Origin: a virus
Lineage: Duplodnaviria; Caudoviricetes
DNA length: 64,000 bases
Reading direction: 5' to 3' (one strand)
Virus record (IMG/VR): IMGVR_UViG_3300049144_000095
Coordinates: 128,001 to 192,000 of that record
Part shown: positions 9,482-26,801 of the stretch, piece after piece
Layout: each line of letters opens with the position of its first letter
How positions within the stretch are numbered: the first letter of the stretch is position 1
Program-made: the position numbers and the translations under genes
The notes under the pieces: model-generated
What the model saw: the letters and a program-made list of their open reading frames with translations, nothing else
Databases searched by the model: none
What the model was told of the DNA's origin: nothing

Positions 9482-9738
9482 TCGGCGACAGCGTCGAACG
9501 CAGTGAGACCTACGCCTGGGCCCGGCGTCACGGCCTGCACGACCCGTACGACTTCGCGATCACCTACGAAGACACATGGGGCGCCAAGGAGGAGCTTGCC
9601 GAGTGCGCCCGCCGGTGGGAACGCAAGCACCTCATGGACCGCAAGCAGCGCATCGAGGAGGAGATGAAGGAGCTGCGCCGGAAGGCCGAGACCATCGAGA
9701 ACGGCCTGGAGCGCATCGAGACCTACGTGTACGACTAG
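9478..9738 (+). CDS. Hypothetical coiled-coil protein
   Basis: GTGA overlap. Confidence 0.7.
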   Translation: MIGDSVERSETYAWARRHGLHDPYDFAITYEDTWGAKEELAECARRWERKHLMDRKQRIEEEMKELRRKAETIENGLERIETYVYD

Positions 9739-9787
9739 CAGGCATCGGCGGTCCGCCGGTGAGCAGACGGAGAGGAGGAGTCGCGAC

Positions 9788-10039
9788 GTGAGCGTGAAGG
9801 GTCACAAGCCCACCGAGATGGGCCCCGAGATGCGGTGCATCTGGGATCACGAACCCTGGCCGTGCGGGACGGTGAAGCTGATCGCGGAGATCCGGCGGGG
9901 TATCGCCGCTGAGGTGCGGCCGACAACACCCGAGCCCAGAGGCTCCTGGCCTGGTGCTGAGATTCAGTACGAACGGTGGCAGACCCGCATGGACGTGGCC
10001 GAGGAGATCGAGGACGGGATCCCGGAGGGTCTGCGGTGA
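9788..10039 (+). CDS. Hypothetical protein
   Basis: RBS GGAGAGGAGG; C..D.EPWPC motif. Confidence 0.7.
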   Translation: MSVKGHKPTEMGPEMRCIWDHEPWPCGTVKLIAEIRRGIAAEVRPTTPEPRGSWPGAEIQYERWQTRMDVAEEIEDGIPEGLR

Positions 10040-10434
10040 GCAAGTACACGGACGAACTTGAGACAGCCTTCGGCATCTTCAATGTCTCCCGGCTTGCACG
10101 CCGCTACCGGTGCCCGGTGATCACGTTCGAGACCCAGCATGCTCACGCGCTGGGCTGGAGTGACCACCGGGCGGCGGTCAGCTACCCCAGGGACGGCGAA
10201 CGGCAGATCAGGACGCTCCGCATCCGGCAGGGCATCAGAGGTCTGGCGGAGAGCCGGGCCGCGCACCTGGAGGCCGCCATCAAGGTGGCCGCCGAGGAAG
10301 GGCTGGGCGTGGAGGAGTGGGTTCCCTCGGGGTTCCCGAACGCCTGGATCCCGGCGGACGTGAAGGCCCGGATCAAGGCCGAGCTGAAGGGGTGGCGCCA
10401 GCAACGGCCCAAGACGGAGAGCGAGAAGAACTGA
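10036..10434 (+). CDS. Hypothetical protein
   Basis: GTGA overlap. Confidence 0.75.
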   Translation: MSKYTDELETAFGIFNVSRLARRYRCPVITFETQHAHALGWSDHRAAVSYPRDGERQIRTLRIRQGIRGLAESRAAHLEAAIKVAAEEGLGVEEWVPSGFPNAWIPADVKARIKAELKGWRQQRPKTESEKN

Positions 10435-10814
10435 TGTTCAAGGACTGTACGGCGGCCGAACTGGCTGACCTGCTGGAGACGGCGGCGAAGGAGCCGAAGT
10501 ACACGGGCGGCTTGTCCATGCTGGACGAGGCGACGATGGCCTTCGGTCGCTTCTCCCCCGAGATCGCCTCAGCTCATCAGCGGTTCGCCGAGGCGCGTCT
10601 CAACCACCTGCACCGTCATCGCGCGCCCGACCCCGAGGTGCTGGAGGAGAAGGTCGTGGGCGCCGCCAGGGGGTTGGCGGTCCTGCTGCGTCCCCTTGGG
10701 GATGTGCGCGTGGCGCGCTGCAAGCGGCAGGCCGGGTGGGGCACCTGCGGCCTGCCGCTCGACGACGACGGCACGTGCCGGTCTTCCCTGGGGCATGCGG
10801 ACGAAGGGGCCTGA
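10434..10814 (+). CDS. Hypothetical protein
   Basis: TGATG coupling. Confidence 0.7.
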   Translation: MFKDCTAAELADLLETAAKEPKYTGGLSMLDEATMAFGRFSPEIASAHQRFAEARLNHLHRHRAPDPEVLEEKVVGAARGLAVLLRPLGDVRVARCKRQAGWGTCGLPLDDDGTCRSSLGHADEGA

Positions 10815-10816
10815 GG

Positions 10817-11128
10817 ATGGAACGGCCCGGCATGGCCACGGTGGAGCGGTGGCTGAGGCACACCTCCCTCCAGTCACAGGGTGAGACGGTCTATCAGATC
10901 GCCAGCGAGCTGCGCGGGGAAGTCAACGGGCTGTGGGCGGCCATGAACGGCGCCGTCACGGCCCGGCCCGGCAAGAAGGAGCAGGCCCGCCGGGAGGCGG
11001 TCATCCTCGGCATGAAGCGGGCCCTGATGGTGGCTCTCGGAATGCCTCCGGGGCCCGTGGACGTCGTGGACACGTTCCTGGAGGAGTTCAAACAGGAACG
11101 CCTGGAGGCTCGTCGCAAGAACCTCTGA
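10817..11128 (+). CDS. Hypothetical protein
   Basis: Follows upstream stop by 2 nt. Confidence 0.7.
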   Translation: MERPGMATVERWLRHTSLQSQGETVYQIASELRGEVNGLWAAMNGAVTARPGKKEQARREAVILGMKRALMVALGMPPGPVDVVDTFLEEFKQERLEARRKNL

Positions 11129-11163
11129 GCAAGCGAACACACCGGAAAGAGAGAAGGAAACGC

Positions 11164-11238
11164 ATGGACCGCGCCATCGACGCCATCGTCACGGCCATCA
11201 TCCTCATCCTCACGAAGCGGGAAGAGCGACGCCGATAG
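11164..11238 (+). CDS. 24-aa hydrophobic peptide MDRAIDAIVTAIILILTKREERRR
   Basis: Strong RBS CGGAAAGAGAGAAGG; hydrophobic core, basic tail. Confidence 0.55.
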   Translation: MDRAIDAIVTAIILILTKREERRR

Positions 11239-11256
11239 GCATCACTCCGCCCCCGA

Positions 11257-11310
11257 GGCCGAAACCCCCGACAGGGGGTCGCGGAATGGGTGTCCCGCCT
11301 GACGATGGCC
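11257..11310 (+). ncRNA. Type II hammerhead ribozyme HH1; predicted cleavage after C11280
   Basis: GGCC-GAAA-C CCCC GACA GGGG G-UC-GCGG..CCGC-CUGACGA-U-GGCC: full core and three stems. Confidence 0.88.
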
Positions 11311-11338
11311 GTCAGCAAGCAACCGGCAAGGAGAAGAA

Positions 11339-11653
11339 GTGCAGCAGATCACTTTCGGCACGAGTCACCGCCTGAGCGTCTACGCCCTGGGGGACACCAC
11401 CCGTATGAACGTCGAGCGTGCGCTGCGCGTACGCGGTCACGCCAACGTGTCCGTCACGGACGTCGCGGACGACGCCGCCTGGGAGGGGGAGAGCCGCCTG
11501 CGTCTCGTGAGCGGCGCCTACAACGGAGTCGATCCGCACACCGCTCTGTACCTGGTGGCCGACGATCAGACGGAGGCGGCAGTCGCGGAGGCCCTGCATC
11601 TGCTGAAGCCGGACGCCGTCCTCAACAGCCAGTGGATCACTCGGCCCGAGTAG
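11339..11653 (+). CDS. Hypothetical protein downstream of HH1
   Basis: GTG after AAGGAGAAGAA. Confidence 0.75.
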   Translation: MQQITFGTSHRLSVYALGDTTRMNVERALRVRGHANVSVTDVADDAAWEGESRLRLVSGAYNGVDPHTALYLVADDQTEAAVAEALHLLKPDAVLNSQWITRPE

Positions 11654-11759
11654 GCCACTCTCTCGGGAGGGTGCGATCCAGGTGGCGACGACGGCAGTTC
11701 GATTCGCCTCTCGCGACTGATTCCCCCTTGACGGGATGCGATCAATACATCACTCCTTG

Positions 11760-11776
11760 TACGATGGCCTAGGCCA
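11760..11776 (+). promoter_or_regulatory. -10 TACGAT plus TGGCCTAGGCCA palindrome
   Basis: Copy 2, perfect 12-bp palindrome. Confidence 0.72.
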
Positions 11777-11803
11777 CACGGTCATCGGAGAGGAGAGAGA
11801 AAC

Positions 11804-11926
11804 GTGATCGCCGATTTACTGCGCCCGCACGGCTGCTACATCGCCGACATCGAGCAGGGCGGGCAGAGGATGACCATCGTTCACCGCTGCGGAAGCAGCG
11901 ACTGCCCGACCAATCAGGGCGGATGA
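11804..11926 (+). CDS. 40-aa small protein with TTA codon (not in ORF track)
   Basis: RBS GGAGAGGAGAGAG; GTG ATC GCC GAT TTA; H..C and HRCGSSDC motifs. Confidence 0.55.
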   Translation: MIADLLRPHGCYIADIEQGGQRMTIVHRCGSSDCPTNQGG

Positions 11927-11930
11927 ACAC

Positions 11931-11961
11931 GAGGGGCCCTGGTTGCAACCCAGGGCCCCTC
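11931..11961 (+). terminator. GC-rich hairpin, probable terminator
   Basis: GAGGGGCCCTGG/CCAGGGCCCCTC 12-bp stem. Confidence 0.65.
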
Positions 11962-11966
11962 ACCCG

Positions 11967-11983
11967 TATCGTGACCTAGGCCA
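11967..11983 (+). promoter_or_regulatory. -10 TATCGT plus TGACCTAGGCCA
   Basis: Copy 3. Confidence 0.7.
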
Positions 11984-12000
11984 CTCGGAAAGGGGAGGCA

Positions 12001-12405
12001 ATGAGCTTGAGCATGAGCCCAGCCAGAACGCTGAGCATGGACGTACTGGCCAGCAACGGAGAGGCGCTGCGGATCACCGTGCACCGCACCGGCGCAGGCC
12101 ACGTCGAACTGAACAACCTGCTGGAAGTTGCCGAGGTGCTGCGTGACGGAGGCCTCGCCCCCGTGGGCGCGTACAGCGTGCGCGGCTTCCTGTCGCTGGC
12201 CGACGACGACAGCGTGACCATCCTGGACGCCGAGAGTGGTCTGGCCATCCCGAGGCAGTGGACGATCGCGGTCGGCGACTGGCTCCAGATGCTCGCCGAG
12301 GATCTGACGGACGGTCCAGACGGGGCCCCCTCGGTTCAAGTCCACAACGAGGCCTACGGCAACGACCCGGCGATGTGGGCCAGCGGGAAGCTGTCGTCGC
12401 AATAA
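12001..12405 (+). CDS. Hypothetical protein
   Basis: RBS CGGAAAGGGGAGG. Confidence 0.75.
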   Translation: MSLSMSPARTLSMDVLASNGEALRITVHRTGAGHVELNNLLEVAEVLRDGGLAPVGAYSVRGFLSLADDDSVTILDAESGLAIPRQWTIAVGDWLQMLAEDLTDGPDGAPSVQVHNEAYGNDPAMWASGKLSSQ

Positions 12406-12485
12406 GGACGGGGCGACCACCGGATGCCGACCTCATTGTCACTGGGGCGTGGCAGCATCAGCGACTGAACAGAAAGGAGGGGAGG

Positions 12486-12815
12486 GTGACCGTGGTAACG
12501 CCGGACGATTACCTGGGGCCGAGGATCGAGGGCGTGGTCCAATTCCAGGACGGCAAGAGCTACATGGTGAGCGCCAGGCCCCGGAAGGATGTCGGCTTCA
12601 CCGACGGATCGATGATCGGCTTCCGGCCGGTCGGGAAGCGCGGCAGTTCGTGCCTCCAGGTTGGCCTGCTGCGCTGGCTCGTGAGAAACGTGGACGAGCC
12701 GGGCGGGTCACTTGAAGGTCTCGGCCTGCTTTCTACGCTGACCAAGGCCGACGCTGGGACGCTTCTGGCATGGCTGGACGCGCAGGACGGAACGAATGGG
12801 GAGGGTGGTTCATGA
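12486..12815 (+). CDS. Hypothetical protein
   Basis: GTG after GAAAGGAGGGGAGG. Confidence 0.7.
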   Translation: MTVVTPDDYLGPRIEGVVQFQDGKSYMVSARPRKDVGFTDGSMIGFRPVGKRGSSCLQVGLLRWLVRNVDEPGGSLEGLGLLSTLTKADAGTLLAWLDAQDGTNGEGGS

Positions 12816-13021: not shown

Positions 13022-13464
13022 CCTTCCATCATGCGACCGGCAACCTCCTCGACTCCCACTGCACCGGCCTGGTGAACCCCGTGAACTGTGTGGGGGTCGC
13101 CGGGGCCGGACTGGCGAGGCAGTTCAGGGATCGCTGGCCGGTGCAGGTGGCCGAGTACACGAAGTTCTGCCGGGACGGGAAGATGCGGCCGGGCGTCATT
13201 CACGAGGCGCTGCTGCCGACCGGCCAGACCATCCTCAGCGTGCCGACGAAGCGGCACTTCCGGGACCAGTCCCGGCTGGACGATGTCCGGCTCGGGGTGC
13301 GGGCGCTCGCCGAGTGGCTGCGGCGGAGCCCGGTCACGATCGCCATCCCGCCCCTGGGGTGCGGGCTGGGCGGACTACCGAAGGCGGAAGTCCTGGCACT
13401 GATCGAAGAGGAGCTGGGCGAAGCCGAAGTGGACATCTGGTTGTACGACTTCAACGCCATGTGA
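13018..13464 (+). CDS. Macro domain protein (Poa1p/DarG-like ADP-ribose hydrolase)
   Basis: GNLL..NPVNCVGVAGAGLARQF..PTK.H..IAIPPLGCGLGGL macrodomain motifs. Confidence 0.9.
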   Translation: MTFHHATGNLLDSHCTGLVNPVNCVGVAGAGLARQFRDRWPVQVAEYTKFCRDGKMRPGVIHEALLPTGQTILSVPTKRHFRDQSRLDDVRLGVRALAEWLRRSPVTIAIPPLGCGLGGLPKAEVLALIEEELGEAEVDIWLYDFNAM

Positions 13465-25280: not shown

Positions 25281-25652
25281 ATGACCGATCAGCCATGGGT
25301 GCAGGTGTTCCCCGGCCCCGGCCTGGATCCGGGATTCCGCTGGGACATCAACGGCCGGGCCCAGTTCCGGCACAAGGGCTACTCAGTGGATGTCCTCATC
25401 CGGCAGGCCACCACCGACGATGCCGCGTATTACGTACGCGAGGAGCCCAGCATCAACGACGTGGTGATCGTCGGCACGGTCAGCCTGGACCACGTGGAGC
25501 TGTCGAACGCCGAGCACCGCGCTGACATCACGGAACCCTTTCAGATGAGCCAAGCCCTCGCCTACGTGCTCGACGCGGCCGTGGAGGACGCTCGTCGGAT
25601 GGTGGGCCGCCTGGTAGAGCGGGTGGCGGAGATCGACGCGAAGCAGAACTGA
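25281..25652 (+). CDS. Hypothetical protein
   Basis: RBS CGGAAAGGGGAAG. Confidence 0.8.
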   Translation: MTDQPWVQVFPGPGLDPGFRWDINGRAQFRHKGYSVDVLIRQATTDDAAYYVREEPSINDVVIVGTVSLDHVELSNAEHRADITEPFQMSQALAYVLDAAVEDARRMVGRLVERVAEIDAKQN

Positions 25653-25675
25653 CCCCAGGCCGAAACCGGGCAGCC
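25649..25675 (+). repeat. Truncated 5' half of hammerhead; direct repeat of 26011-26037
   Basis: CTGACCCCAGGCCGAAACCGGGCAGCC vs CTGACCGCAGGCCGAAACCGGGCATCC (25/27 identical). Confidence 0.8.
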
Positions 25676-25708
25676 AATTCAGTCTTTAGAAGGGAGGGAG
25701 TGGGACCA

Positions 25709-26014
25709 ATGGTGAGCATCAACGATCTGGATGGACCGGTGCGAACGGTCGCCGACGTCGTGCGCCAGAGGAAGATCGGCGCTCACTTCGTCGCGCACCG
25801 AGACATCGGCCTGGATCCTCAGGGCAACTTCTGGCTCCGACGCGAAGGCAAGGTGGATCTGCTTCCGGGACTGAGGAAGAAGATCGCTATTGCATGCGTC
25901 CGGGATTCGGGTCTGCGCCTGAGTTCCAGTCAGACGATCGCGACCGACAAGGTGCAACGTCTCGCCGACCCCGTGGACGACACCACTTGGATCAAGGTTC
26001 AAGGGACCTTCTGA
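25709..26014 (+). CDS. Hypothetical protein flanked by hammerhead-derived direct repeats
   Basis: RBS AAGGGAGGGAG. Confidence 0.7.
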   Translation: MVSINDLDGPVRTVADVVRQRKIGAHFVAHRDIGLDPQGNFWLRREGKVDLLPGLRKKIAIACVRDSGLRLSSSQTIATDKVQRLADPVDDTTWIKVQGTF

Positions 26015-26081
26015 CCGCAGGCCGAAACCGGGCATCCAGCCCGGTCGCGCAGTGAGGCTGCGCCTGACGATGGCCGTCAGC
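26011..26081 (+). ncRNA. Type II hammerhead ribozyme HH3; predicted cleavage after C26046
   Basis: GGCC-GAAA-C CGGGC AUCCA GCCCG G-UC-GCGCAG UGAGG CUGCGC-CUGACGA-U-GGCC; stem II extended by CUGAC/GUCAG. Confidence 0.9.
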
Positions 26082-26447: not shown

Positions 26448-26801
26448 ATGGGAAGCAACCTGAGCGGCGTACAGGCTGGGACCGAGCTGCTGCTGGCAAG
26501 GAAGGGCTTCGGCAGGCGCAACCTGGACCAGGAGCCCAGGAAGGTGCAGGTGCACAAGGTCGGCACCAAGCTGGTGTACATCCAGGATGGCACCACCGCC
26601 ACCGCGTACCGGATCGAGAACGGCCGGTCCAACTCTCAGTACAACGACTACGAACTGTGGCGGCCGGAGGAGTGGGCTGCGGAGGGCAGGCGTGCCGAGC
26701 TGGAGAAGGCCCTGAACGCTCACGGTGTCGAGGTCTGGCGCAAGCAGCAGCCGATCCGCGTCCTGGAGAAGCTGCTCGCCGTCCTCGACGGAGAGCTGTA
26801 G
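26448..26801 (+). CDS. Hypothetical protein, possible small beta-barrel N-terminus
   Basis: V.VHKVGTKLVYI pattern; RBS GGAAGGGGAG. Confidence 0.75.
   Translation: MGSNLSGVQAGTELLLARKGFGRRNLDQEPRKVQVHKVGTKLVYIQDGTTATAYRIENGRSNSQYNDYELWRPEEWAAEGRRAELEKALNAHGVEVWRKQQPIRVLEKLLAVLDGEL

Follow-up and report, generated by a model that had tools for sequence, protein, structure and literature searches.

The 64-kb stretch of DNA analysed here, referred to as the window, belongs to a 251-kb viral record from soil, and the public sequencing runs containing this DNA are five soil metagenome DNA runs, with no RNA run listed. As outlined in Table 1, a hammerhead-like element (HH1) is located on the plus strand between a short candidate ORF and a gene starting with GTG. 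The candidate ORF has a hydrophobic centre and is overlapped by a longer frame (10933-11238). The GTG start is backed by the GGAG at 11330-11333 and by homology, from the N-terminus on, to gp268 of the phage JustBecause, which is encoded after the orthologous ribozyme and is 28% identical to the protein following HH1. Searches of the genes flanking HH1 and a second copy (HH2) against Pfam and PHROGs returned no family except for the Phage_ProQ_C_like domain (PF24203, E 4.7e-16) of the second gene after HH2 (26448-26798, +), whose product is a possible RNA-binding protein. A scan of positions 9500-12500 revealed neither promoter- nor terminator-like sites within 1.2-1.8 kb of HH1. Stem III of HH1 was also considered as an intrinsic terminator and rejected, since it lacks a subsequent U-run and the scan of 9500-12500 was free of terminator-like sites, a result which applies to HH1 only. 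Further downstream, at ~13038-13385 (+), the DNA exhibits ~70% similarity to the ADP-ribosyltransferase genes of JustBecause, Frankenweenie and Kela, and this region follows the ribozyme in the same order as in those Streptomyces phages.

The preliminary description had reported a complete type II hammerhead at 11257-11310 (+), and every element listed therein was recovered in place upon reading the sequence. HH1 comprises all invariant hammerhead residues in the type II order, i.e. stem II 5' strand, GAAA, stem III hairpin, C17, stem I hairpin, CUGANGA and stem II 3' strand, with the core residues C3-A9, G12-A14, A15.1-U16.1 (11264/11279) and H17 at the positions given in Table 1. [quoted passage not shown] Three helices and their covariation, as expected for the hammerhead class, were found in alignments of five and of 79 sequences (see below). 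Judged by sequence and structure, HH1 belongs to the hammerhead class and has type II topology. Stem I contains just four contiguous pairs, and the element runs 5-6 nt past the reported end at 11310 into a conserved tail. Hammerhead chemistry produces a 2',3'-cyclic phosphate, which here would be on 11280, and a 5'-OH, which would be on G11281. The proposed cut after C11280 does lie 59 nt ahead of the GTG at 11339.

Table 1 Features of the HH1 locus and of the further hammerhead copies, numbered from the first nucleotide of the window
Feature	Position	Strand	Details
Candidate 24-codon ORF	11165-11238	+	Own GA-rich ribosome-binding stretch; TAG 11236-11238, 18 nt before stem II
Candidate pseudoknot strand CCCG	11252-11255	+	Partner UGGG 11287-11290 in loop I
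Unpaired A	11256	+	Directly 5' of stem II; A in 73/79 distinct copies
Stem II 5' strand GGCC (11.4-11.1)	11257-11260	+	Second helix pair 11258-11309: G-C 66, A-U 8, C-G 5
Core G12 A13 A14	11261-11263	+	Sequence reading and alignments
Stem III hairpin	11264-11279	+	A15.1-U16.1 (A11264-U11279) and five C-G pairs; GACA loop 11270-11273
C17	11280	+	Predicted scission 11280/11281, placed by hammerhead consensus
Stem I hairpin	11281-11298	+	GCGG 11281-11284 / CCGC 11295-11298, then A.C mismatch, A-U pair, U/G-rich loop
Core C3 U4 G5 A6 C7 G8 A9 (CUGACGA)	11299-11305	+	Sequence reading, Rfam alignment
Extra U between A9 and G10.1	11306	+	Sequence reading, Rfam alignment
Stem II 3' strand GGCC (10.1-10.4)	11307-11310	+	
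Conserved tail GUCAG	11311-11315	+	With C11310 complements core C3-G8 (11299-11304)
Ribosome-binding site GGAGAAG	11330-11336	+	Ahead of GTG 11339
Downstream gene	GTG 11339 to stop 11653	+	104 aa; no Pfam/PHROGs family
Truncated hammerhead	25648-25676	+	CUGAC, bulge, GGCC, GAAA, 5' half of stem III, then unrelated sequence
HH2, second copy	26011-26081	+	Upstream CUGAC, CGCA bulge, hammerhead 26020-26075, tail GUCAG 26076-26080
HH2, predicted cut	after C26046	+	Hammerhead layout

HH2 shares the core and the immediate flanks with HH1, including an identical 18-nt 3' segment. Stems I and III differ between the two copies and are complementary within each, so that the differences are compensatory. 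The upstream CUGAC of HH2 contains the UGA stop of the ORF 25700-26014, and its minimum-free-energy fold is the active three-way junction, in which stem II is extended by CUGAC/GUCAG. The truncated hammerhead adjoins the stop of the ORF 25281-25652 and, together with HH2, brackets the single gene 25700-26014, suggesting that genes have been inserted or exchanged through recombination inside ribozyme copies. In the phage's own genome, a covariance model built from five copies detected HH1 and HH2 and no further copy.

At the Rfam gathering threshold, the 64-kb window yielded no ribozyme and five tRNAs alone. Five tRNA genes are located at 47697-49207 (-), one of them carrying a long variable region or insert (46.2 bits, 86 nt). 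Under permissive settings, the Rfam model Hammerhead_II (RF02276), which had been named as a check in the preliminary description, aligned to HH1 over its full length (model positions 1-66); the score of 24.2 bits (E-value 0.0068 within the 271-nt region, 1.6 when the whole window is searched) fell short of the gathering score of 37 bits, which is the threshold of one model and no biological criterion of the hammerhead class. HH2 (26020-26081, 30.4 bits) is also below this score, nine relatives reached 25-33 bits, and copies on contigs resembling Burkholderia phages, including those matching BcepGomr and BcepB1A, were not detected by RF02276 at E<=1. For comparison, a descriptor comprising the core and three helices matched the window at HH1 and HH2 and nowhere else, and it had no match in 300 shuffles that preserve dinucleotides. 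A loose IUPAC pattern matched the window seven times, a number reached in 13 of 100 shuffles and therefore not above chance.

A Megablast search of the HH1 locus against 50,697 phage records gave no match, and a sensitive DNA search of phage genomes returned distant relatives only, among Streptomyces phages of 184-200 kb. The sole DNA of the Satis group that matches near HH1 is an 84-nt ribozyme stretch, which is situated in unannotated intergenic gaps of ~90 nt. In the published Streptomyces phage genomes these gaps (L009:1501-1590, L010:1501-1592 and L011:1499-1596) consist of the ribozyme and the ribosome-binding site of the next gene. Stem II of JustBecause reads GACC/GGUC versus GGCC/GGCC in HH1, which is a compensatory change. 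With an 84-nt DNA match set against the 28% protein identity next door, the RNA element is, judged from these comparisons, far better conserved than its neighbours.

The five-sequence alignment was 98.8% paired and contained eight pairs with changes on both sides; the covariance model built from it (R1) has circular E-values for these five copies. R1 matched two copies strongly and a third weakly in each of Satis, JustBecause and Frankenweenie, and all of these copies are on the strand of the genes. Altogether it recovered 87 copies with 79 distinct sequences; they come from Streptomyces and Burkholderia phages and from viral contigs, and the loci for this set include IMG/VR fetches by a 17-nt pattern. 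Among the named carriers are seven Streptomyces phages as well as Burkholderia phages, for instance BcepGomr and BcepB1A. Sampling of the family relied on fixed patterns, and the resulting set has phylogenetic structure. Within the 79 distinct sequences standard pairs fill 98.5% of the helix cells, and in 13 of 16 pairs both partners have changed, while the pairing falls to 32-47% in a control in which one strand was slid by 1-3 columns. Compensatory changes among homologous copies occur in all three stems, with both-side changes in 5/6 pairs of stem III and covariation of 6/6 modelled pairs of stem I across the family.

Conservation of the core in homologous loci, on which the preliminary description had made its proposal depend, is borne out by the alignments: G12, A13 and A14 are invariant in the five-copy alignment and in the aligned copies except for two weak matches (L075 and L104:8763), which look like one false match and one decayed copy. 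The extra nucleotide after A9 likewise proved to be a normal and dispensable trait of the subclass, as the 79 distinct copies carry U (66), A (3), G (3) or C (1) at this place or lack the base (6). Apparently it also occurs in pseudoknot-type type II hammerheads of viral contigs, where the register was assigned by script. The plus strand of CChMVd reportedly is an active natural hammerhead with an extra base between A9 and G10.1; that ribozyme is a viroid type III hammerhead, whereas in the present family the extra base is typically U and optional. A study of this viroid precedent (De la Pena and Flores 2001, J Biol Chem) is listed among the references of PMC2632901.

The position of the copies relative to genes is uniform as well. 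All of them reside on the coding strand, the last base of a stop codon falls between 6 nt ahead of stem II and the first base of that stem in 76/80 copies (random control, 28%), and a ribosome-binding site and start codon follow within 45 nt of the element in 59/80 (control, 20%). Measured against this, the 18-nt gap between the upstream stop and stem II of HH1 is atypical for the family. A scan of genome contigs with a tail-free pattern returned 120 loci, two of which passed the stem checks; nearly all of these loci are chance matches, and the scan provided no replication and no host information.

In addition to the secondary structure, a pseudoknot between CACUC (11243-11247) and GGGUG (11288-11292) had been proposed for HH1. 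Both strands are indeed present in HH1, but none of its five orthologues has a GGGUG loop; we rejected this pairing as one that is possible for HH1 alone and is unconserved among the orthologues. The homologues tentatively support 11252-11255:11287-11290 instead, a pairing based on six sequences which perhaps represent a single evolutionary event. In all six (HH1 and five orthologues) a (C/U)CCG in the 5' flank can form four pairs with (U/C)GG(G/A) in loop I, one pair being C-G in three and U-A in three sequences and another G-U in five and G-C in one. The same six sequences have a longer loop I, which is mostly a pentaloop in the family and starts with U in 67 of the 79 distinct copies. A canonical pseudoknot between loop I and the 3' tail is absent, as by eye the HH1 tail GUCAGCAAGC has no complement of at least four bases in loop I. 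Classical hammerheads exhibit a tertiary motif of a loop-1 U and a loop-2 A (PMC2632901), in which the A is the 3'-most base of loop 2, and the first loop I base and the unpaired A 5' of stem II (A11256 in HH1) found in most copies may take the places of these two residues.

The conserved tail offers a different pairing partner, namely the core itself. In HH1 the alternative hairpin would comprise 6 bp (11299-11315) with an AUGGC loop, and at the DNA level core and tail read as an imperfect inverted repeat. The tail was analysed in a set of IMG/VR matches to a hammerhead with GGCC stems, any N7 and no selection for the tail, which contained 80 distinct elements after stem checks. An N-UCAG tail was found in 44 of them, and in 44/44 its first base complements N7 (C7/G 31, U7/A 12, G7/C 1; Fisher p 6.5e-11 for the C/U classes). 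Since both states are found inside three clusters of close relatives, the concerted change must have happened repeatedly. In eight further copies the tail is one substitution away from expectation: three carry U.G wobbles (GUCGG twice, AUCGG once), three inner mismatches and two changes of the terminal pair. Additional wobble-type tails were found outside the unbiased set, and the wobble tails as read from these sequences point to RNA pairing rather than to a DNA palindrome. In the remaining 36/80 elements the tail is different, in many cases corresponding to the known pseudoknot type, and the pseudoknot-type members of the same collection are clearly different from the type with a core-complementary tail.

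In an active hammerhead N7 is free of constraint, and C3-A6 in the catalytic pocket cannot pair with the tail at the same time. For this reason the covariation of N7 with the first tail base marks a conserved alternative hairpin that would mask the core and exclude both core and stem II. In high-GC phages an upstream CUGAC, including the UGA stop of the preceding gene, can pair with the tail as well, thereby extending stem II past a 4-nt bulge. Three mutually complementary segments are therefore present in HH2 and in most copies of Streptomyces phages. As a general partner of the tail, however, CUGAC had to be rejected: it accompanies 18/44 tail-bearing copies and is absent from 26/44, HH1 included, which leaves the core as the general partner. 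HH1 has lost the segment, with 3/5 positions still complementary, whereas its orthologues keep the stem II extension.

Folding energies from a nearest-neighbour model, which ignore tertiary structure, amount for HH2 to -34.4 kcal/mol for the extended active fold and -31.5 kcal/mol for the tail-hairpin state, and for HH1 to -23.8 kcal/mol for the active fold (the pseudoknot not being counted), -25.2 kcal/mol for the tail-hairpin state and -33.9 kcal/mol for a misfold. The predicted fold of the 3' product consists of the stem I hairpin and the tail hairpin.

We consider it very probable that HH1 is a functional type II hammerhead within a long transcript that runs rightward in a 251-kb phage from soil, a relative of the large Streptomyces phages Satis, JustBecause and Frankenweenie, the most likely function being to cut the polycistronic phage transcript between genes. 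In the mechanism we propose, the three-way junction would fold during RNA synthesis, probably aided by the pairing of loop I with the 5' flank, and would undergo self-scission between C11280 and G11281. The stem III hairpin, carrying a cyclic phosphate, would then form the end of the upstream message, and the downstream message would begin with a 5'-OH right at the stem I hairpin, 58 nt before the start codon. Upon release of the 4-bp stem II, C3-G8 of the core and the tail could snap into the 6-bp hairpin, which would block religation, rendering the cleavage irreversible, and free the upstream fragment. The downstream mRNA would thereby start with two stacked hairpins, located 20-30 nt before the ribosome-binding site, and the likely effect is that stability and translation of the neighbouring genes become uncoupled. 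The pairing of the tail is demonstrated by covariation; its role we infer. RiboJ-type synthetic insulators likewise place a hammerhead followed by a hairpin just before the ribosome-binding site, so that hairpins stand at the new 5' end and the upstream context is removed. RiboJ is an engineered part, and the resemblance is functional only, an analogy and not evidence.

Against a functional HH1 stand the Rfam score under the gathering score, the predicted active fold, which is less stable than the tail-hairpin state and the misfold, the stem I of four contiguous pairs and the lost stem II extension. HH1 may cleave less completely than HH2, as it is devoid of the CUGAC/tail helix by which HH2 and the HH1 orthologues are biased towards the active fold. 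A further step in this direction is to regard HH1 as a weakened or decaying copy and poor cleaver, with HH2 as the active element. Besides the short stem I and the missing extension, the unusual gap after the upstream stop and the inactive predicted minimum-free-energy fold would fit such a decay, and the truncated copy at 25648-25676 demonstrates that such elements do decay in this genome. However, the core bases of HH1 are all intact, its loop I retains the pseudoknot complementarity of the orthologues, and the ribozyme DNA is far more conserved than the flanking gene with its distant JustBecause counterpart, so that we regard this explanation as unlikely. The most serious competitor, although still well behind in our estimate, is a regulatory one, in which the tail hairpin represents an OFF state before cleavage and terminating ribosomes or folding kinetics set the cut fraction; the tail would pair either with the core (inactive) or, in high-GC phages, with the stop-containing upstream CUGAC (active). 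The three mutually complementary segments, the closeness in energy of the two HH2 folds, the stop codon within the ribosome footprint of the ribozyme in 76/80 copies and the upstream motif in 18/44 tail-bearing copies are in line with such a switch. A three-way switch cannot be general, though, given the 26/44 copies, HH1 among them, without an upstream partner; moreover, the upstream motif is invariant and hence offers no covariation test, its conservation could partly reflect the stop-codon context in related phages, and an OFF state is compatible with the post-cleavage model and does not exclude it.

As a further explanation, the core and tail palindrome could act as DNA, as a protein-binding or recombination site at the borders of gene cassettes, the likeness to a ribozyme being secondary. 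The imperfect inverted repeat, the bracketing of a single gene by the truncated copy and HH2, and single small genes flanked by copies in several contigs might be read in this way; but every copy lies on the coding strand, the covariation of the stems admits G-U pairs, a feature of RNA, the U.G wobble tails (GUCGG/AUCGG) keep an RNA helix and break the DNA palindrome, and the remainder of the element is a full hammerhead, which makes a DNA site very improbable. A functionless chance match to the short hammerhead consensus would agree with the Rfam score below the gathering score and with the whole-window E-value of HH1. The empty descriptor scans of the shuffled sequences, the second copy with compensatory stems and the 79 distinct relatives with strong covariation speak against it, and the idea, which we give practically no weight, is already refuted by the comparative data.

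While cleavage followed by locking of the product is the preferred reading, it is conceivable, if rather doubtful, that the subclass as such is a two-state ribozyme, with the tail as a built-in anti-ribozyme helix and, in large Streptomyces phages, a competing stop-containing segment that would couple cleavage to upstream translation termination. If true, this would be a protein-free and ligand-free control of phage mRNA processing by the ribosome. Independent of this, the covariation of N7 with the first tail base is clean evidence of a second, mutually exclusive structure in a natural hammerhead and raises the question of whether natural ribozymes lock after cutting or get gated before.

The preliminary description had overlooked the conserved 3' tail with its alternative pairing to the core, and also that such elements had been reported from phages in 2011 (PMC3088659); hammerheads dividing phage operons into messages for single genes are thus a known kind, and their presence here is unsurprising. 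Prophage type II hammerheads flank genes and cleave in vitro and in vivo (PMC3088659, PMC8782182). The type II hammerheads of Perreault et al. 2011 (PMC3088659; RF02276) have the same catalytic core, with stems I and III capped and stem II open, likewise occur in phage or prophage DNA, often in several copies that flank single genes or short blocks, and were assigned the same role, i.e. the conversion of long phage transcripts into gene-length mRNAs. They differ in that the 2011 consensus includes, for the majority although not all, a loop I pseudoknot of at least four pairs with the 3' tail, whereas in the present copies a pentaloop usually forms loop I, the tail complements the core, and one extra base mostly follows A9. 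Scoring 24-33 bits or escaping detection at a cut-off of 37, the members described here form a subclass outside RF02276 by score and without the consensus pseudoknot. In the 2011 screen, hits having a mispair adjacent to the core were discarded (PMC3088659), and this rule together with the extra U may have excluded the subclass. The supplements of that study (PMC3088659) contain no BcepGomr or Streptomyces entry and mention Bcep176 alone.

The classical hammerheads of Dufour et al. 2009 (PMC2632901) share the 4-bp stem II, a stem I of 6-7 bp, the loop I U and the unpaired A with the present family. In contrast to them, there is no closed loop 2 here; its place is taken by an open 5' flank, and the high-GC phages fill it with a 4-nt bulge closed by CUGAC/GUCAG. 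In Desulfovibrio vulgaris, cyPhyRNA-seq captured both products of type II hammerheads near hypothetical or phage-like genes from cells (PMC8782182). Host and subclass are different there. What appears to be new is the architecture with a core-complementary tail that covaries with N7, the optional stem II extension containing a stop codon, the 5'-flank contacts and the failure of the standard model to detect the subclass. The literature examined contains no description of these traits, although one may exist elsewhere.

Carried by large Streptomyces phages, by Burkholderia phages and by many viral contigs from soil and water, the subclass is widespread and lies systematically under the Rfam cut-off or is missed. 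This annotation gap has left intergenic gaps of ~90 nt in published phage genomes unexplained, because the subclass is invisible to routine annotation. Furthermore, the elements may also serve as junctions for phage gene exchange, since they mark exact gene borders and the truncated copy brackets one gene.

Additional copies were observed in other phages and contigs. JustBecause (L138:1501-1573), Satis (L139:1501-1575) and Frankenweenie (L140:1501-1574) each contain a third, divergent hammerhead scoring 25-29 bits with R1, in which stem II is formed by GGAC/GGAU with GUCC/AUCC, stem III is longer and the GUCAG tail is kept. The densest array was found on IMG/VR contig 3300047160_002917 (L019:1217-3496), where seven hammerheads lie between very small ORFs within 2.3 kb.
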